Shown here in pieces: positions 1 to 49,602 of a stretch of 64,000 bases of DNA. Source of the stretch: Candidatus Woesebacteria bacterium RIFCSPHIGHO2_01_FULL_39_32. GTDB lineage: Bacteria; Patescibacteriota; Microgenomatia; UBA8517. The notes under the pieces are model-generated. The model was not told the origin of the DNA. It made no database searches and was given only the letters and a program-made list of their open reading frames with translations. The position numbers were made by a program, and so were the translations under genes. The stretch spans positions 85,371 through 149,370 of the forward strand of contig MGGJ01000013.1 of assembly GCA_001792345.1 (NCBI GenBank), written 5' to 3'. Positions within the stretch are counted from its first letter, which is position 1. The number at the start of each line of letters is the position of its first letter.

Positions 1-118
1 TCACAGACCACAGAATCGGCAAAAGCTGGGGAAATCTGGAATCGATAGTTGACGGAAATTTAGATAAAGTTATTGAGGCAACCAAGAATTTATAATGGAT
101 ATCTTTCAATATCAATTC

Positions 119-1099
119 CTATTCAATAAAGATAGTATCACCGTAACTCACAGGTACTTCATCACCCAGTAAATCAAAATCGGTAAATTTTGAAGGGGGT
201 CTTTGAAATCCCCGAACTTGCCCTTCCACAGCAAAACTTCCATCGTCAGAGAATAGTTTTTTAACTCTCTCAGAAATTCGCTCAGCCGGTAAATCAGGAA
301 TTACACGCAAATTTTGTCTAACCAAATAATAATAGATTTCTTCTAAACTTACTTCAGGCATGAGTTCTTGTACCGCTTCTGTTGTGCTTAGTATATGAAA
401 GGGATGACGAATTGTTCTATCCAAATCTTGTCCTCCCCTTACCAGTTTTTGCGAAAGGTATGGGTCCTTTTCGTGTACAAAAAAATATTTAACACCTGCC
501 ATAATAAATAACTCATTGTAGTGGTCGTTATCTGGTAAACCAGAAAGATTGCTCGGTAATACGGCAAGATGAGTGACTGTCGGTTCATAAAACCACATAG
601 AAAGCCTTAATTGCAAGGGAAGAAATGGCGCTTTGCGGGCCTTCCTTTGCATATATTCATCTTGTTCAAATCCCCAAACCGTCACAGGAACCACGCTTGC
701 CATATATTTCGCAGCGTGGATATGCCCTTTATGGCCTTCTGCCCCAGCAACAAATATCATTCCTGTATTTTCATCTTTATATCTACTTTCCAGTAAACGT
801 GATAAATCCTCAAATTTAACTAACTTATCTCCAGAAAACATCAGCCCAGTGTCTGATTCGTAAGGAAACGCGATTAGTAAATCCTTCCAATAGCCAAACC
901 ATTCTGGTGCGAGAACCTTTCTCCTTTCAAGATTTGGGCCAGGATGACTAACTAATAACTGCTCGGCCTCCTTCAGGGCAGCAAGTATATTTTGAGGCGC
1001 AAATACAACCCTTTTATCAAGCATTTCTTGCCAATCAACACTTGGCAATGCATCGGAATCAAAGCTATGAAAGTATTGTTCGGTTCTCTCCGCTCCCAT
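119..1099 (-). CDS. Nucleotidyltransferase-superfamily (HxGH / cytidylyltransferase-like) protein with an N-terminal extension
   Basis: Internal motif GAEGHKGHIHAAKY (HxGH) and later ILSTTEAV (ISxT-like), which is typical of the HIGH-motif alpha/beta nucleotidyltransferase fold. Exact substrate unknown. Confidence 0.4.
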   Translation of the reverse strand: MGAERTEQYFHSFDSDALPSVDWQEMLDKRVVFAPQNILAALKEAEQLLVSHPGPNLERRKVLAPEWFGYWKDLLIAFPYESDTGLMFSGDKLVKFEDLSRLLESRYKDENTGMIFVAGAEGHKGHIHAAKYMASVVPVTVWGFEQDEYMQRKARKAPFLPLQLRLSMWFYEPTVTHLAVLPSNLSGLPDNDHYNELFIMAGVKYFFVHEKDPYLSQKLVRGGQDLDRTIRHPFHILSTTEAVQELMPEVSLEEIYYYLVRQNLRVIPDLPAERISERVKKLFSDDGSFAVEGQVRGFQRPPSKFTDFDLLGDEVPVSYGDTIFIE

Positions 1100-1126
1100 T
1101 TGCAGCGATTATATCACTTGTAATAA

Positions 1127-2005
1127 GTGTTAAAGAATGTTATTTTGGCGGAAATGTTAGAACATGGTCTTTTTTATCATGAGGAAGAAACGAAAATAGC
1201 GCTTAGAAAGTTAGAAGTATCGTCAGAAATATTACCCAGTGAGCTACCTCAGATTAATGAGATAATTTGGCCGAGAGAATCTTTAAGAATTGATGAAAAT
1301 TTATCGATAGTTGGATTAAATGGCCCTCCAAGTGCAGGAAAAACCACCGTTTTTACTCGAAGTTATAATGAAATGGCAGATAAAATACAAATACCCGTCA
1401 GTGTGACTGGCACTCCGACCCCATGGATCTACCATCTTGGAAGATATGCAAGTAAGTTTAAAAATAACCTTCAGGGTGATCCAACAATAAGATATAGTTT
1501 CTTTGAACAGCATATGTGGCAACTTTATGCCTTAAAATCTGAATATGAAACGTATGCAGAAGTATGTGCTGGTAAGGAAATGTCAACTCCGATATTAGTT
1601 GAGAGAAACGAGCTCGATATACTAGTATTTTCAAGAGCAAATTATTTACATGGAGGACGGCTACATCGATTCTCGCAGGATATAATTGAATACACTGTCG
1701 AAGAAATTATGCAACCAGACTGGCCACGTTTAAAACCTTTTTATAAAGCCTACATTTTCTGTTTAATTCCACCCAAAGAATCCCTCGATAGGGACGAGGA
1801 ACAGGAGAATCCATCGAGAACCGTACTAACTCTCCCCTTTCTTAATACACTGTACGAACAATATTTACGAATACACTTACAGGCAATCTCTGGAGATATT
1901 CCACATCCATATGCTTGTTTAGATTTTACTAAGACACCAGATGAAAATTATAGACTATTAACCGATACCCTTAATACAATGCATGATTATTTTTCAAAAG
2001 TTTAA
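1127..2005 (+). CDS. P-loop NTPase, deoxynucleoside-kinase-like
   Basis: Walker A IVGLNGPPSAGKTTV. An ER...LVFSRA segment resembles the dNK/dCK ERS motif. Divergently transcribed from gene 1. Confidence 0.4.
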   Translation: MLKNVILAEMLEHGLFYHEEETKIALRKLEVSSEILPSELPQINEIIWPRESLRIDENLSIVGLNGPPSAGKTTVFTRSYNEMADKIQIPVSVTGTPTPWIYHLGRYASKFKNNLQGDPTIRYSFFEQHMWQLYALKSEYETYAEVCAGKEMSTPILVERNELDILVFSRANYLHGGRLHRFSQDIIEYTVEEIMQPDWPRLKPFYKAYIFCLIPPKESLDRDEEQENPSRTVLTLPFLNTLYEQYLRIHLQAISGDIPHPYACLDFTKTPDENYRLLTDTLNTMHDYFSKV

Positions 2006-2147
2006 GAGTAAATTTAAAGACAAACTGAGAAGATTAACCAACACCGGGTGTTAAGTAGGTTTGAACAATGGGTATTCTGGCTTACTCGCTAAATTCACTC
2101 AAAGTGGCTGTTAATTGAAGAGTTTCTCTTTCGCGCAAAATTATTAA

Positions 2148-2423
2148 TTAACTTGCTGGGTGGTATTTGTCTACTCTACTTTTCAATTCATTAAATTCTC
2201 TTTTAGATGGAGTGTCGGATAATTCAGCAGTTAAACCTTTAATATCATCTCTAACAAATCCCAATTCCGTTTTAAATTCGCTTCTAAGTTCCGACTTTGC
2301 ATTTTTTATTTCGCCCCGAAGATTCTCCCCTGTCTGACCAATCAGTTTATCCATTCCTTTAAGAATAGCCTTGACGGCCTGGTCTAACATACTTTTTCTA
2401 ACAAGCGGGTCTTTCTTGTTCAT
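2148..2423 (-). CDS. Small hypothetical coiled-coil protein
   Basis: 91-aa charged K/E-rich ORF with no recognisable motif. Confidence 0.3.
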   Translation of the reverse strand: MNKKDPLVRKSMLDQAVKAILKGMDKLIGQTGENLRGEIKNAKSELRSEFKTELGFVRDDIKGLTAELSDTPSKREFNELKSRVDKYHPAS

Positions 2424-2465
2424 ACGAAAAGGATAGTATGTGTAAGTTAATAAAACAAGAAGAAA

Positions 2466-3656
2466 TTATTCACTGAATTCTGAAAGTGTTGCTGTGAGTT
2501 GAAGGGTTTCACCGTCGCGCCAAACCTCGAGAGAGACCGTTTGGCCCGCTTTTTTCTTCGAGATTAAATCAGCCAAACCACCATTAGTGTCTCGAACATC
2601 TTCGCTGTCAAACTTAGTAATTATATCTCCCGCTACAATTCCTGCCTTTGCCGCCGGAGAATTTCCGACTACTTCAACTACATATGCTCCTTGAACAACT
2701 TTATTTAAAATTGCGGTTTCCTCATCAACCATTTGGTATTGAATACCAAGGAAAGGTTTTGAAGCAAACTTTCCTGTTTTTTCAAACTGGTCTAGCGCAT
2801 CTTTAACAAGATTAATTGGAATTGCAAAGCCGATATTCTCTGCTCCTTGGGCGACGGCCACGTTGACTCCTATTACCTGCCCCGCAGAATTTAGAAGCGG
2901 ACCGCCTGAATTTCCCGGGTTAATTGCCGCATCGGTTTGGATAACATCATCAAGCCGTTCAACAAAGCCCTCAAAAGCCGATCCTGCGGTTATTCCCCGC
3001 CCTAAACCAGAAATCACACCTGTTGTAACAGTTGAGCGAAATTCTCCGAGAGCAGTACCAATTGCAATAGCAAACTGCCCTACTTTCAATTTCCCGGAAT
3101 CCCCCATTTCAACAGGAATTAGTCCGCTTGCATCTATCTTTAGAACAGCTAGATCGTTTGAAGGATCACGACTAATTTTTTCGACCTCGTATTCTTTATT
3201 ATCTGAAGAAACTACCTTGTAAGAAGCCTCTGTATTGGATACTACGTGTTTATTTGTGATTATCAAACCATCTTCAGAAACAATAAATCCGGTTCCGATA
3301 TCCTGAGGTTCCCCTCCTTCAATGCGAGACCTAAATCCCCCACCGAATGGATTAAATTCCAAAATTCTTTTCTGGGGTTCCACTATTGCGATCGTAACAA
3401 CAGATGGCGAAACCCTATCGGCTACTTGCGTTACAACCGACTCTTCATTTAAAACTCTTTGTTCAATAGTACCGGTACGAAAACCTAATCCATTTTGTCG
3501 TTCAAGCAGAAAGTCCAATGGTTTAATTACAAAAAGTCTATCTGCTATTGCACCGCCAATTGCCGAAGCAGATAATACTACCGTAATGGCCGTAAAAATC
3601 AAAAGTCCTCTGATGCTAAGCTTTTTCCCTGATTCCGGCTTTTGCATTGGTTCCAT
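2466..3656 (-). CDS. htrA: HtrA/DegP-family periplasmic serine protease with PDZ domain
   Basis: N-terminal TM segment, trypsin-like catalytic segment with GNSGGPLLNSAGQVIGVN, and a C-terminal PDZ-like region. Confidence 0.85.
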   Translation of the reverse strand: MEPMQKPESGKKLSIRGLLIFTAITVVLSASAIGGAIADRLFVIKPLDFLLERQNGLGFRTGTIEQRVLNEESVVTQVADRVSPSVVTIAIVEPQKRILEFNPFGGGFRSRIEGGEPQDIGTGFIVSEDGLIITNKHVVSNTEASYKVVSSDNKEYEVEKISRDPSNDLAVLKIDASGLIPVEMGDSGKLKVGQFAIAIGTALGEFRSTVTTGVISGLGRGITAGSAFEGFVERLDDVIQTDAAINPGNSGGPLLNSAGQVIGVNVAVAQGAENIGFAIPINLVKDALDQFEKTGKFASKPFLGIQYQMVDEETAILNKVVQGAYVVEVVGNSPAAKAGIVAGDIITKFDSEDVRDTNGGLADLISKKKAGQTVSLEVWRDGETLQLTATLSEFSE

Positions 3657-44218: not shown

Positions 44219-44674
44219 TTACTTCTGCCCTAATTCTACACGAAAGATTCTACCAATGCGAGCGTTTTCTCCAGTTTTTGCGATAACCTCTTTTACTAAA
44301 TCTTCCACTATTTTCGACGGATCTTTGATGAATTCTTGTTTCTCGAAATCCTTTTCTCCCATTGACGCAACCTGCATTGCTAAATCGTGTGCCAGGTTTT
44401 GGAAAAGTTCGTTTCTTGCTACAAAATCGGTTTCACAAAAAAGCTCGATTACCCCAACAACCTTTTGGTTATGATGTGCGTATGTGGCAACTATTCCTTC
44501 CGAAGTTTCACGCCTAACCCTTTTTGCAACTTTTTCAAATCCTTCTTTTCTCAAAATCTCTTCGGCTTTTTTCATATCACCTTTAAGCTCCTCAAGAACC
44601 TTTTTTGTTCTCATAACTGGAGCACCTGTGTCCTCTTTTAATTCTCGGATTTGATCGACTGTAATTTTTGTCAT
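44219..44674 (-). CDS. tsf: Elongation factor Ts (short form)
   Basis: N-terminal UBA-like TKITVDQIRELKEDTGAPVMRTKKVL. 151 aa. Confidence 0.8.
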   Translation of the reverse strand: MTKITVDQIRELKEDTGAPVMRTKKVLEELKGDMKKAEEILRKEGFEKVAKRVRRETSEGIVATYAHHNQKVVGVIELFCETDFVARNELFQNLAHDLAMQVASMGEKDFEKQEFIKDPSKIVEDLVKEVIAKTGENARIGRIFRVELGQK

Positions 44675-45398: not shown

Positions 45399-45549
45399 AA
45401 TATGGATTGGTTCCTTGTACCTCTACCCGAAGCTAAGAAGCCCCATAGGAGTCCTTCAGGAACCTGCTTCAGATATGCGTATTCTCCTAAATAATTAGGA
45501 GTGAGAGTATTGTAACAATATCAAAGCCGTTTTACAATATTAAAAAGAT

Positions 45550-47481
45550 ATGTCCGACAACGATTTAGATGCTCAGGAGCTATTGCCGACCGAGGGGAAG
45601 AATTTACAAATCGAGAATAAGTATCCTGCAACTCTTTACTTGGCAATTATTAAACAGATGGGAAGTAAAGATATGATGACACGTCTTGCGGGAGAAAAAA
45701 TCGGGTTTGTTGAATCACAAGATCCCGAGCATCCCTTGGTTAATATTGAATCCAGGATACGTGGGAATTTAATTCATACCCAATGGGAAGATATTCCTGA
45801 CCACCCTGGATCAAGACGGGGAGTTGGTAAACAGATACAAGAATTCAATTGGGAGACCAGATTTAAACTTCATAATCATACATATATAGATGAGGAAGTG
45901 GCATCCTCAATAGGTAGTCAATTAACAGAAAAAGGTTATGAAACTCGGACTGAATCTACCCGAACTGGATCTAAAAAGATGTTTATCGAGTCCCCTGCGG
46001 GGAAATTTGAATTGTCGTTAGGCTTTCCAAATCCACAAGCACTGATCAAGTTTTACCAAGACCAATTGGTTGAATATAGAGCAAAGTATTCAAGTCTTGT
46101 CCAGTTTCAACTTTCGCAAATTGAAACAGTTCGGAAAGGAGAAGAAGAAAGTTCTTTACACCTTGAAATAGCCAATTCGCATCCCAATTTAGGCCCTTCG
46201 GGAACTCCTTTAGAATCGAAAGAACAAGCTCTGGCTTATATAGAGCAAGGTAAAAAGCTAGCTGAATTTGTTGCAACCTTATTGACCAAAGAGCTTGGTG
46301 GTGGTAGGAGTTTTCCAGTCATAAATATGGAATGGAAGACTAGTTCTGTCCAACCTGCCCTATGGCATGAAGCAGGAAAAGTTAACCTCCTTGAAGACTT
46401 AAAAAACATACCGATAAGCGAATTAAATTCCTCCCTTGTCAGAGTAATACAGACTCTTAAGGAGGAAAAGAACGCCCCTGATCTTTTTACCAAAAGTGGA
46501 ATGGACTCGGAAGCCAAAAAAATGCTCGGCTTAATCGAAGATTATTTCCAAAATCGTTTTACAGTAATTAAACCTGAAGATTTTGCTACCTTAGATGGAC
46601 AGGACAAGGCTTTATTAGCACTTGGGCTTACCTTGAAGTCGATAGAAGGAGCAATAGTTAGGGACAACGATCGTTTTATTCCCCCTAATCAATCCAGTAT
46701 ATGTGGGGTAAAATTTCAAAGATATGGCGAGAGTATGCGCGACCGTTTCGAATTTTATATGCAACAAGATCGGAAGTTCAAATATGACAAAGAAACCTCA
46801 GAACCAGCAGATTTCCTTTTACTACACACTACTTTTGAAGGGCAAGCCGATAATTTAACAAGATATGAAAGAATACAATCAGAGAATTTGGGGAAGACAA
46901 GGCAATGGATTATTACACAATTAGAACCCGAAAAAGCAGGAAGGTATACTGCTGATGACGTGGAAAAGATAAACAGCTTGCTGCTCCTTGACTTAGTCCC
47001 CGATCGTGTCCTCGGCATGTTCAGGAAAACACAGAACGCGATGATTGAAGGGCGGATAGGCATGACCCAGCCAGAAGACATCGAGAGAAATCTTAATTCT
47101 TTACTAGAAAATACAGGTAAATATATTTCAGATACACAAAGATCTGGACAGATCGACGAGGATGCCGTTTTACGTACCCTCGTGCAAAATTGGTCATATT
47201 TTGATGCCATTCACCCAATGGAAGAAGGAAATGGAAGAACAGGAACATTGCTCTTCGAATCCTGGTATAGGCTCTTATATGGTTCGCAAAAACGTTTTGT
47301 ATCTGAAAGAAAAGAGTCTTATTTACTATCGCAAGCTATATCAGAGGCACTGAAAGGTAACTCGAACTATGAGTTTTGGTATTCTCCAAACTCCAAACCA
47401 TCAGGCCTAGAAGGAGATATTGAACCTCTTTTTGAATATGTCAAATCTCACTTGGTAGAAACCGCCGAACCAACAAGTTAA
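45550..47481 (+). CDS. Large Fic/Doc-family (AMPylation-type) domain protein with a long N-terminal region of unknown function
   Basis: C-terminal Fic core motif HPMEEGNGRTGT, matching HPFx(D/E)GNGR with the last Arg replaced by Thr. Confidence 0.6.
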   Translation: MSDNDLDAQELLPTEGKNLQIENKYPATLYLAIIKQMGSKDMMTRLAGEKIGFVESQDPEHPLVNIESRIRGNLIHTQWEDIPDHPGSRRGVGKQIQEFNWETRFKLHNHTYIDEEVASSIGSQLTEKGYETRTESTRTGSKKMFIESPAGKFELSLGFPNPQALIKFYQDQLVEYRAKYSSLVQFQLSQIETVRKGEEESSLHLEIANSHPNLGPSGTPLESKEQALAYIEQGKKLAEFVATLLTKELGGGRSFPVINMEWKTSSVQPALWHEAGKVNLLEDLKNIPISELNSSLVRVIQTLKEEKNAPDLFTKSGMDSEAKKMLGLIEDYFQNRFTVIKPEDFATLDGQDKALLALGLTLKSIEGAIVRDNDRFIPPNQSSICGVKFQRYGESMRDRFEFYMQQDRKFKYDKETSEPADFLLLHTTFEGQADNLTRYERIQSENLGKTRQWIITQLEPEKAGRYTADDVEKINSLLLLDLVPDRVLGMFRKTQNAMIEGRIGMTQPEDIERNLNSLLENTGKYISDTQRSGQIDEDAVLRTLVQNWSYFDAIHPMEEGNGRTGTLLFESWYRLLYGSQKRFVSERKESYLLSQAISEALKGNSNYEFWYSPNSKPSGLEGDIEPLFEYVKSHLVETAEPTS

Positions 47482-47520
47482 TTTCAAACAGCTGTTTTGA
47501 AAGTAACACTTAATCATTTA

Positions 47521-49332: not shown

Positions 49333-49602
49333 GTGAAAATAATGTATAAAGTTCAGAAAAAAGATGGTACACAAGAGGATTTTGACCCAAACAAGATATT
49401 AAGCGGGGTGAAGAAAGCGGGTGGATCCGAAGAGGATGCTCAGAAGGTTCTTTCTGAAATCCAGGCTTGGTTACCTACTGCAGCACAAAATAACGTAGTT
49501 AAAGCACTAGATATAAGAACAAAAGGACTCGAAGTGCTTGAACAAGTTAGTCCCGAAGTCTTTACAAAATTCAAATCCTACGAAAAACCGCCCACAAGCT
49601 AG
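49333..49602 (+). CDS. Stand-alone ATP-cone domain protein
   Basis: MYKVQKKDGTQEDFDPNKI matches the ATP-cone consensus (V.KRDG..E.F...KI). A GGAGG RBS lies 8 nt upstream. Confidence 0.55.
   Translation: MKIMYKVQKKDGTQEDFDPNKILSGVKKAGGSEEDAQKVLSEIQAWLPTAAQNNVVKALDIRTKGLEVLEQVSPEVFTKFKSYEKPPTS

Follow-up and report, generated by a model that had tools for sequence, protein, structure and literature searches.

The fic Locus and Its Flanking Elements

A fic gene encoding a three-part protein of 643 aa lies in a Candidatus Woesebacteria (CPR) genome, within a stretch of 64,000 nucleotides that was analysed as a whole and is referred to below as the window (Table 1). The open reading frame is real, and the C-terminal third of its product is a Fic domain; public records name the protein "hypothetical" or "Fido domain-containing protein". 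Its ATG is the second codon past an in-frame stop, and the start is thus unambiguous.

Upstream, fic is flanked by rpsB, located 151 bp away and transcribed divergently, as an earlier note on this DNA had described; the assignment was secured by a Ribosomal_S2 match (E = 2.7e-83). Downstream, it faces the convergent vanY gene across a gap of 102 bp. A small ORF cannot fit beside fic in gaps of this size and no antitoxin-like partner was present in either the rpsB or the vanY flank, in agreement with the same note. The gene is surrounded by housekeeping genes, and the same locus was seen on 23 contigs. The GC and GC3 values of fic equal those of the neighbours, and a recent horizontal transfer was rejected on this basis. 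No paralogue of the Fic protein was found within the window, and an Rfam scan of the window returned no RNA family.

A symmetric promoter-like element is contained in the 151-bp rpsB/fic intergenic region, and its plus-strand copy ends 12 nt before the fic ATG. At the other end of the gene, an inverted repeat overlaps the stop codon. This palindrome had been taken for a terminator; the palindrome itself is present, but a function as an intrinsic terminator was not supported, since the AT-rich repeat forms only a weak fold (centroid −6.4 kcal/mol; z = 0.84 compared with shuffled sequences), lacks a T-tract, and did not come up in a terminator scan.

Table 1. Features of the fic locus, with positions in the window. 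Residue numbers refer to the 643-aa protein; a dot marks features without strand assignment.
Feature	Position	Strand	Description or basis
Whole fic gene	45550..47481	+	643 aa, three-part Fic protein; OGM04623.1 and others
Symmetric promoter-like element TTGTAA-17-TACAAT, both strands	45509..45538	.	Consensus match only
N-domain, orphan alpha/beta, aa ~25-265	45622..46344	+	Profile search, Pfam architectures, alignment, model
Linker and family-specific helical extension of the Fic module, aa 266-464	46345..46941	+	Alignment
E418, near-invariant Glu (11/12)	46801..46803	+	Alignment; putative positional equivalence
Fic core, FICD-like, aa 465-605	46942..47364	+	Pfam, PDB profile, Foldseek
G-x-F-R and flap segment, aa 489-507	47014..47070	+	Alignment with FICD GRFRTTQVLVG...P.DVE
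Active-site motif HPMEEGNGRTGT, aa 555-566	47212..47247	+	Sequence; residue roles from PMC3667792
AT-rich inverted repeat, 12 nt	47477..47507	.	Arms 47477-47488 / 47496-47507, 92% complementary

A FICD-Like Core with a Variant Active Site

The protein had been read from its motif as a large Fic-domain protein, and the profile and structure searches corroborated this. The Pfam Fic family PF02661 matched aa 467-570 with 30.9 bits (E = 5.1e-7), above its gathering score of 24 bits, and all full-length homologues likewise matched Pfam Fic. When the family profile was compared with the PDB, human FICD (E = 1e-8) and BepA (E = 1.2e-7) were retrieved. The top Foldseek matches of the predicted structure were all Fic structures (VbhT, FICD, EcFicT, and CdFic), with a target-normalised TM score of 0.70 and an rmsd of 3.8 Å across 202 columns for VbhT (3zcb_A). 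Both a missing Fic HMM match and a motif lying in a non-Fic fold had been named as grounds for rejecting the assignment; the HMM match was significant, and the model, which superposes on VbhT, FICD, and EcFicT, places the motif in a predicted Fic fold, between helices 537-554 and 563-577. The AlphaFold model was built on five sequences; pLDDT drops below 50 in its active-site loop (aa 557-561).

The active-site residues read H555-P-M-E-E559-G-N561-G-R563-T-G-T566. The motif thus retains the His, the Mg-binding Glu, the GNG anion nest, and the first Arg (R1), but the canonical Phe is replaced by Met (M557) and the second Arg (R2) by Thr (T566). The Arg-to-Thr change had been noticed from the query alone, and it proved to be a property of the family, as T or S occupies the R2 position in all 12 members of the alignment that was used for the conservation counts. 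H555, P556, and R563 are invariant in the 12 members and E559, N561, and G562 are present in 11 of them, whereas the third motif position, canonically Phe, can be M, E, K, Q, I, T, G, or F. Replacement of this core-anchoring Phe could result in a distorted or inactive catalytic loop. Distant members carry partly degenerate motifs (DSNSR in P0021, EGGGR in P0022, and ESNGR in P0023).

Ahead of the motif, G489-x-F-R492-x-T-Q aligns with GRFRTTQ of FICD, and the flap-like segment to which it belongs is presumed to be the target-docking hairpin; in the model, this segment contains only isolated bridge residues, with pLDDT below 50 at positions 493-498.

The Helical Extension and the Search for an Inhibitory Helix

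The sequence upstream of the motif had been described as about 500 aa of uncharacterised protein. This was roughly correct in length, as the core starts at about aa 465, but the region resolves into an N-domain and an extension of the Fic module. No match to aa 1-464 was found in Pfam, PDB, or PHROG.

The extension itself spans approximately aa 331-464 and always travels with the Fic core, including in P0015 and P0021-23, in which most or all of the N-domain has no detectable match. It is marked by three blocks (RYGESxRDRFEFYxQQxRKFxY, E(A)ADFLLLHT, and TRYExxQxxN), and all 12 members share residues R397, Q406, K409, H426, and Y439. Invariant columns make up 17% of the extension and 24% of the Fic core, as opposed to 4% of the N-domain. 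PDB and Pfam searches with the extension revealed no similarity, AnkX included.

We also looked for an inhibitory (S/T)xxxE(G/N) helix, a check that the earlier note had proposed. The expression was absent from the query and from P0004, and its scattered matches in other homologues were non-homologous; the protein has no canonical inhibitory helix. However, E418 appears from the alignment to fall roughly at the place of the class II inhibitory Glu, outside the (S/T)xxxE(G/N) context, and may possibly be a degenerate equivalent of it. This residue is Asp in a strain variant that is 99.5% identical.

An N-Domain Shared with Cdc48-Like AAA+ ATPases

The N-domain was modelled (pLDDT 82, pTM 0.79) as an alpha/beta domain with two long beta-hairpins and a conserved M-E-W-K motif at its end. 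It is a previously undescribed domain: Pfam gave no match on 19 members, Foldseek found none in a viral library, and a PDB profile search retrieved nothing, the best match being a designed mini-thioredoxin (E = 0.015). A class II aaRS-like fold was considered and rejected, because the corresponding Foldseek PDB matches were below threshold (TM about 0.2).

Profile searches and Pfam architectures showed that the N-domain also occurs as a standalone protein, fused to a Cdc48-like AAA+ ATPase, or beside a separate AAA+ gene. The fusions (P0006, P0011, P0018, P0019, and P0024) are single-ring proteins from related contigs, and at one locus (L097) the N-domain and the AAA module are on split genes. 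The AAA+ partner resembles p97/Cdc48/VAT (E = 1e-34 to p97/Cdc48), and no Cdc48 or VAT structure was among the matches of the N-domain itself in the PDB sequence and Foldseek searches. Since Cdc48/p97-like AAA+ unfoldases of related genomes carry this very domain at their N-terminus, it probably acts, by analogy with AAA+ N-domains, as a client-recognition module, and its occurrence on these ATPases points to an intracellular client.

In line with such a location, neither a signal peptide nor a transmembrane segment was predicted (maximum KD19 1.08, acidic N-terminus), the pI of the protein is 5.2, and no BID-like or other known translocation domain was found by Pfam. The protein may still be secreted by a signal-peptide-independent route.

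Distribution of the Family

Fusion of a Fic module with this new N-domain defines a very rare family. Only 22 relatives were found among 1.84 billion cluster representatives, the word-indexed profile searches gave one match apiece, and the JGI metagenomes contributed one member. None was found among GTDB species representatives by a pattern-limited search, which would miss variants such as WASFDGIHP. The members are 26-61% identical over the Fic module, and the family is patchy, with a locus that differs between lineages.

Across 11 loci, neither a conserved neighbour nor an antitoxin was found, and no secretion-system gene adjoined the family member at any of them. Translation genes adjoin family members at 5 of about 11 loci (one of five for the Fic-type loci). 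This enrichment is suggestive only, with a binomial p of 0.02 to 0.2 depending on the assumed background.

Proposed Activity

We propose that the protein is a catalytically competent, non-canonical Fic transferase that acts inside the Woesebacteria cell, and assign a probability of roughly 0.55 to this reading. It is favoured by the conservation pattern, since invariant columns are concentrated in the Fic core and the extension, as expected for a constrained enzyme. The C-terminal 180 residues form a FICD-like core that retains the general-base His555, the Mg-binding Glu559, the G-N-G anion nest, Arg563 for the beta-phosphate, and a flap-like segment.

In canonical Fic enzymes, R2 pairs with the inhibitory Glu and also forms a salt bridge to the gamma-phosphate of ATP (PMC3667792; PMC8401265). 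In FICD, the substitutions R374H/C abolish deAMPylation and the latch, and AMPylation persists at a reduced level (PMC12974487). With both R2 and the canonical inhibitory helix missing, the usual Glu-R2 on/off latch would thus be inoperable and, without an Arg at position 566, the donor would not be held in the canonical ATP mode. Two solutions can be envisaged. The donor may be a compound with a diphosphate only (NDP-X), comparable to CDP-choline for AnkX, or else R397 and K409 of the extension, perhaps with Q406, H426, and Y439, may replace R2 in gamma-phosphate binding and in regulation. In either case, the orphan N-domain would select the client, His555 would deprotonate a Ser, Thr, or Tyr hydroxyl on the flap-docked protein, and this hydroxyl would attack the donor phosphate, leaving an NMP or a phospho-X group attached. 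Fic-type and AAA+-type carriers of the N-domain would then handle clients of one kind, the former by modifying and the latter by unfolding them.

A broader model, which we regard as tentative and rather unlikely, is that of a lineage-restricted, so far CPR-associated system for handling clients, with a fast-evolving recognition domain that can be joined to a Fic modifier or to a Cdc48-like unfoldase. A single class of cellular clients, perhaps part of the translation machinery in view of the genes that recur nearby, would in this case be inactivated covalently or else unfolded. Residues of the extension would stand in for R2 and the Glu latch, and the Fic module might use a non-ATP donor and hence a new Fic chemistry.

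Alternative Explanations

The earlier note had suggested that the protein could be host-directed. It would then be a secreted effector that the epibiont delivers into its host cell, with a Fic domain that attaches AMP or phosphocholine to a host protein and an N-domain for delivery or host-target binding. The group to which Woesebacteria (CPR) belongs is thought to be largely epibiontic (PMC11665869), a T4SS homologue is known in Patescibacteria (PMC12102498), and many non-canonical Fic proteins, such as AnkX and the Beps, are effectors (PMC8401265, PMC3667792). Moreover, the protein lacks an inhibitory helix and an antitoxin, like VopS (PMC12974487), and its N-domain is fast-evolving, with the low fraction of invariant columns given above. 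The location data, however, speak against this explanation: signal peptide, TM segment, and known translocation domains of the BID or other types are all absent, secretion-system genes adjoin fic in 0/11 loci, the locus is a housekeeping one of native composition, and the N-domain is shared with AAA+ ATPases that are active in the cytoplasm of the producer. The effector proposal was thus not borne out, and we consider it unlikely.

It is also quite unlikely that the protein is a pseudo-enzyme, in which the Fic fold would be a binding scaffold devoid of transferase activity, as in BepC of Bartonella, which acts through binding and also departs from the canonical motif (PMC8401265). The loss of R2, the exchange of the core-anchoring Phe even for charged residues (E, K, Q), the low confidence of the modelled active-site loop, and the degenerate motifs of distant members are consistent with such a scaffold. 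On the other hand, H555 and R563 are invariant and E559, N561, and G562 nearly so in proteins that have otherwise diverged widely, and conservation along the protein peaks in the motif region, which would be unexpected had catalysis been lost.

A third explanation, an eraser, has in our view a slim chance of being correct. The protein would hydrolytically strip AMP, or a similar phosphodiester modification, from a client, with His555 as the acid and E418 positioning a water molecule, as in FICD and EfFic, for which Glu-dependent deAMPylation is established (PMC8373988). A modified-protein substrate has no gamma-phosphate, hence R2 would be dispensable for its binding, and the near-invariant E418 seems from the alignment to lie about where the class II gatekeeper Glu sits. 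However, the FICD R2 mutants R374H/C are devoid of deAMPylation, as the Glu needs its salt bridge with R2 (PMC12974487), E418 lies outside the gatekeeper context and is naturally replaced by Asp, and no candidate writer enzyme was found nearby.

Finally, a toxin of a toxin-antitoxin or anti-phage defence system (SoFic / PDC-S04-like), which would arrest the growth of its own cell upon infection, is highly improbable: the patchy, rare distribution with differing loci and the weak PADLOC (PDC-S04, E = 4.4e-11, 40.9 bits; SoFic, E = 4e-10) and PHROG matches would fit it, but these matches span the generic Fic core only, the protein reaches 22.1 bits with the NCBIfam SoFic equivalog, for which the cut-off is 550, antitoxin, conserved partner, and nearby defence genes are all absent from a housekeeping neighbourhood, and an uninhibited toxin with no antidote would be hard to maintain at a locus as stable as this one, on 23 contigs.

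Significance

Fic enzymes are a model of how small changes in a catalytic loop lead to the transfer of AMP, UMP, phosphocholine, or phosphate, or to deAMPylation. The combination seen here, in which R2 is consistently lost and the "Phe" position varies, the GNGR nest is intact, and a conserved private extension is present, falls outside the published motif classification, and the family is thus a natural experiment on donor binding and gating in a Fic protein devoid of the Glu-R2 latch. In ultrasmall CPR bacteria, about whose regulation hardly anything is known, the N-domain connects a protein modifier with an AAA+ unfoldase, and finding its client would give a small view of CPR proteostasis or translation control. 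The practical weight of these findings is limited, as this is a tiny family from uncultured organisms and the functional statements are all inferred.

Comparison with Known Fic and AAA+ Systems

The best profile match is FICD/HYPE, the metazoan class II AMPylase/deAMPylase of BiP, along helices alpha1 to alpha6. Both proteins have GxFRxTQ, ahead of the flap in FICD and of the putative flap in the Woesebacteria protein, and both consist of an N-terminal domain, established (TPR in FICD) or proposed as target-recognising, followed by a helical linker and the Fic core; identity in the Foldseek structural alignments is about 11-14%. They differ in the active site, as FICD has HPFIDGNGRTSR, R374 as R2, and the gatekeeper TxxxE234G, while the Woesebacteria protein has Thr, Met, and no canonical gatekeeper. 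In addition, neither its N-domain nor its extension is related to TPR, and it has no TM anchor.

AnkX, the phosphocholine transferase of Legionella, also lacks R2 (motif HxFxDANGRxxV, PMC3667792), has V in its place, and uses CDP-choline, which has no gamma-phosphate, as a donor (PMC3667792). Its donor is bound through domains beyond the Fic core, which parallels the role proposed for the conserved extension. In contrast, AnkX is a T4SS effector and has DANGR, with Ala at position 6, instead of EGNGR, and neither its CMP-binding and insert domains nor its ankyrin repeats could be recognised in the Woesebacteria protein; the profile match is weak (E = 3e-4) and confined to the Fic core. The idea of a phosphocholinator therefore stands as far as chemical precedent goes, AnkX lacking R2 as well, but draws nothing from the domain comparison.

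Doc, the EF-Tu kinase of P1 Phd-Doc, is likewise a Fido-superfamily member without R2. It is about 125 aa long. It differs by its defining Lys at motif position 8 (GNKR, in HxFx(D/N)(A/G)NKR), which inverts ATP and is G562 here, and by its pairing with the Phd antitoxin, for which the Woesebacteria protein has no equivalent. Doc has six core helices (PMC4177925) and no beta-hairpin (PMC4454073). A Doc-like identity, also suggested earlier, was consequently rejected on the basis of the Gly at position 8, the flap-like segment, and the best profile match, FICD.

Among the clades of Khater & Mohanty 2015, F3 (Hxxx[D/E]GNTRxx[!R]) has also lost the last Arg and was reported with a modified inhibitory helix, but its second Gly is changed to Thr, whereas the Woesebacteria family keeps GNGR; GNGRxx[T/S] matches none of the five motif groups of that study. 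Lastly, the Cdc48/p97/VAT-type AAA+ unfoldases, which have substrate-binding N-domains, differ from the Woesebacteria Fic protein by the AAA+ module, which it lacks, but its N-domain is homologous to the N-module of Cdc48-like AAA+ proteins.

The C-Terminal Region Is a Fic Domain

An in-frame stop precedes the fic open reading frame, whose ATG is the second codon after it; the start is therefore not in doubt. Near the C-terminus, the protein (hereafter the window protein) carries the motif HPMEEGNGRTGT, exactly as it had been written in the earlier note, within a Pfam Fic/DOC match scoring 30.9 bits versus a gathering score of 24 (E = 5.1e-7). The best PDB chain in a single-sequence comparison was a marginal match (a Clostridioides difficile Fic protein, E = 0.087), and a profile of 12 family members matched human FICD (E = 1e-8), BepA (1.2e-7), and AnkX (3e-4). 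An AlphaFold2 model (5-sequence alignment, mean pLDDT 78.9, pTM 0.68) was also compared with known structures using Foldseek. Its top PDB matches were all Fic proteins (FICD, VbhT, EcFicT, CdFic, and Beps), the best superposition being on VbhT 3zcb_A (target-normalised TM 0.70, rmsd 3.8 A, 202 columns), and a viral structure library gave solely Fic matches, to the C-terminal part. Profile and predicted fold thus both place the motif in a Fic domain.

Location of the features of the fic gene, its protein, and related loci (window nucleotides unless aa or a contig is named)
Feature	Position	Strand	Remarks
Short tsf	44219-44674	-	EF-Ts of only 151 aa, strongly truncated; Pfam EF_TS profile positions 3-77 of 204 covered
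rpsB	Upstream of fic	Divergent	Ribosomal_S2, E = 2.7e-83
tsf, frr, M50/PDZ protease	Upstream of fic	Divergent	
Promoter-like element	45509-45538	Both	Symmetric, rpsB/fic intergenic; TTGTAA-17-TACAAT
fic	45550-47481	+	643 aa; ORF reading of the window
N-domain	aa ~25-265		Ends at conserved M-(E/D)-W-(K/L)-P
Helical extension	aa ~331-464		
Fic core (followed by short tail)	aa ~465-605		
Pfam Fic/DOC match	aa 467-570		
Fic motif	aa 555-566		
Variant positions of P0001	aa 416, 418, 448; 46795-46803, 46891-46893		
Inverted repeat	47477-47488 / 47496-47507		12 nt, AT-rich, overlaps the fic stop codon
VanY-type peptidase, folD, ATP-cone protein, glyA, tmk	Downstream of fic	Convergent	
ATP-cone protein	49333-49602	+	89 aa, stand-alone, between folD and glyA
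Lone N-domain paralogues P0017, P0020	Contig L093, 3095-4805 and 8001-9904		Tandem, between infB and rpsO
Lone N-domain gene P0014 and AAA+ gene	Contig L097 (JGI Ga0395706_007329), 1053-2754		259 aa and 313 aa; 20-nt overlap

The Active Site Lacks the Second Arginine

Over the module, the 12 members compared share 26-61% identity. In their active sites, H555, P556, and R563, the first Arg (R1) of the motif HxFx(D/E)GNGRxxR, are invariant, and each of E559, N561, and G562 is conserved in 11 of the 12. In this motif, the His is the general base, the Phe lies in the hydrophobic core, D/E binds Mg2+, and the Asn and R1 touch the alpha- and beta-phosphate, respectively (Goepfert et al. 2013, PMC3667792). 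The position of the second Arg (R2), T566 in the window protein, is never Arg: it is Thr in nine members and in P0021, and Ser in P0022 and P0023. The canonical Phe is found in three members only, the others having M, E, K, Q, I, T, or G. Khater & Mohanty 2015 (PMC4454073) divided Fic/Doc motifs into five groups, in which loss of the last Arg accompanies Lys or Thr at position 8; GNGR followed by a non-Arg residue lies outside these five groups. The earlier description of a non-canonical Fic enzyme was right.

The inhibitory helix sought in the earlier note did not emerge, as no conserved (S/T)xxxE(G/N) motif was found in the family. A near-invariant Glu, E418 (11/12 members), lies 28 residues before the start of the FICD alignment, and the FICD gatekeeper E234 lies 33 before the equivalent residue. 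Given this close spacing, E418 may be a degenerate counterpart of E234; the residue that follows it is A, P, or V, not G/N. Five polar residues of the extension (R397, Q406, K409, H426, and Y439) are invariant, and the extension itself has no PDB or Pfam similarity. A strain variant, P0001 (a read-derived 90%-cluster representative, 99.5% identical), differs only by T416P, E418D, and G448V, two of which fall within the short conserved segment that may match the inhibitory-helix Glu.

A Rare Family Built from Three Modules

A word-indexed search of 5.8 billion clusters returned four homologues over the full length, at 39-54% identity, and a further protein with similarity to the first ~270 residues only. 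One relative was present in the JGI metagenome collection, none was found with two peptide patterns in 185,579 GTDB species representatives, and an exhaustive HMMER search of 1.84 billion 50%-identity representatives with aa 1-460 recovered only 22 proteins. The family is rare. Pfam architectures and alignments of these 22 proteins made three modules evident: the N-domain, the helical extension, which accompanies this kind of Fic core without exception, and the Fic core with its tail. The N-domain occurs as a lone protein (seven proteins, 259-294 aa), joined to a single AAA+ module (P0006, P0011, P0018, P0019, and P0024), or joined to the Fic module, as in the window protein, P0002-5, and P0008-10; P0015 and P0021-23 have the extension but show no detectable match to most or all of the N-domain. 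Among eight full-length members, invariant columns make up 24% of the Fic core, 17% of the extension, and 4%, the lowest value, of the N-domain.

The AAA+ partner is Cdc48/p97/VAT-like (E = 1e-34). In one locus, on contig L097, the N-domain gene P0014 is followed by the AAA+ module as a separate gene that overlaps it, and the association is therefore functional rather than a gene-calling artefact. This pair, a split form of the fusion, stands with other genes between rplC and rpsJ, breaking the usual S10 operon order. In P0024 (802 aa), an unusual chaperone-fragment fusion, the N-domain is separated from the Cdc48-like ATPase by an inserted segment (Pfam HSP70 positions 224-302, E = 4.7e-16) that is closely similar to DnaK nucleotide-binding subdomain IIB.

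In a separate model (7 sequences, pLDDT 82.2, pTM 0.79), the N-domain was alpha/beta: long helices accompany a pair of long beta-hairpins (63-81 / 89-107) and a second sheet. Foldseek found no PDB match to this model at E <= 1e-3; weak matches (TM about 0.2) recurred to class II aaRS-like folds (PheRS-beta 3ica_B, PylRS, ProRS, and the Pol-gamma accessory subunit), a likeness that may serve as a lead, not as an assignment. A translation gene was the immediate neighbour at about 5/11 independent N-domain-protein loci (rpsB for the window protein, rplC/rpsJ for P0006 and P0014, infB and rpsO for P0017/P0020, a release factor for P0018, and cysS for P0019). CPR genomes are dense in such genes, and against that background the count falls short of significance (p about 0.02-0.2); among Fic-type loci it was only 1/5. 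A diversity-generating-retroelement-like pair (bAvd and reverse transcriptase) lies ~3 kb upstream of P0017/P0020.

Genomic Context

The fic gene is surrounded by housekeeping genes. As already described, it is divergent from rpsB. The flanking gaps of 151 and 102 bp leave no space for an antitoxin, in agreement with the lack of a partner reported before. Its GC (0.400) and GC3 (0.342) are in line with its neighbours. Across several groundwater samples, 23 contigs encode exactly this protein, with identical context every time. Its database entries (OGM04623.1 and others) bear the name 'hypothetical protein' or 'Fido domain-containing protein' of Candidatus Woesebacteria. The SHMT of this Candidatus Woesebacteria bacterium (Microgenomates, CPR) shares 85% identity with its counterpart in a Woesebacteria MAG.

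Of the palindromic terminator proposed downstream of fic, the inverted repeat exists, but it folds no better than shuffles (z = 0.84), has no T-tract, and received no call in a terminator scan of the window. The + strand copy of the promoter-like element ends 12 nt before the ATG, which would leave the mRNA with almost no leader, and upstream of the ATG there is no obvious Shine-Dalgarno sequence. Window genes are overwhelmingly on the - strand with a steadily negative GC skew, fic being among the few + strand genes. Neither a ribonucleotide reductase nor an NrdR-type zinc ribbon was detected adjoining the ATP-cone protein, and no Rfam family, tRNA included, reached gathering score across the whole 64-kb window.

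Proposed Activity and Alternatives

The window protein is a rare Fic protein of three modules, in which a conserved GNGR motif without R2 is combined with a private extension and an orphan, putative recognition domain also found in Cdc48-like ATPases. Neither a signal peptide nor a TM segment is present (hydropathy over 19 residues peaks at 1.08), and the protein is acidic (pI 5.2); these features, together with its AAA+ relatives, favour a putative intracellular client. The secreted, host-directed effector suggested earlier would fit the CPR lifestyle and effector precedents, but nothing in sequence or context backs it, and we consider it unlikely.

The window protein keeps the base, the metal ligand, the anion nest, and R1, together with a putative flap segment (GxFRxTQ) like that of FICD, and this speaks for an active Fic-type phosphotransferase. 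This conservation pattern contradicts a pseudo-enzyme, which is distinctly unlikely despite the loss of Phe and R2 and an active-site loop of low confidence in the model. In FICD, R374H/C breaks the E234-R374 salt bridge and abolishes deAMPylation, and AMPylation is lowered but not abolished (PMC12974487). Combined with the conserved absence of R2, these data suggest that a canonical latch (a Glu-R2 on/off salt bridge) and canonical deAMPylation are unlikely in the window protein, and that transfer is possible. A dedicated eraser has some appeal, as its substrate would have no gamma-phosphate and a Glu is conserved, but it is at odds with the same data and appears quite improbable. A toxin of a TA or defence system is very improbable, since PADLOC and PHROGs gave generic Fic-core matches only, the SoFic equivalog score was 22 versus a cut-off of 550, and the genomic context contradicts it. 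The 'Doc-like' description was wrong.

Because of the FICD R374H/C data and the AnkX precedent, we propose that the window protein would be an un-gated, or differently gated, transferase, whose intracellular client would be chosen by the N-domain, by analogy with AAA+ N-domains and the TPR domain of FICD. We place this reading slightly above even odds (about 0.55), its weakest steps being the activity itself and the N-domain role. The donor could be an NDP-X compound; alternatively, it could be an NTP, with invariant basic residues of the extension gripping its gamma-phosphate. FICD, the closest characterised relative, has R2 (R374), while the present family does not; AnkX is also an R2-less Fic enzyme (HxFxDANGRxxV), and it uses the diphosphate donor CDP-choline, aided by domains outside the core.
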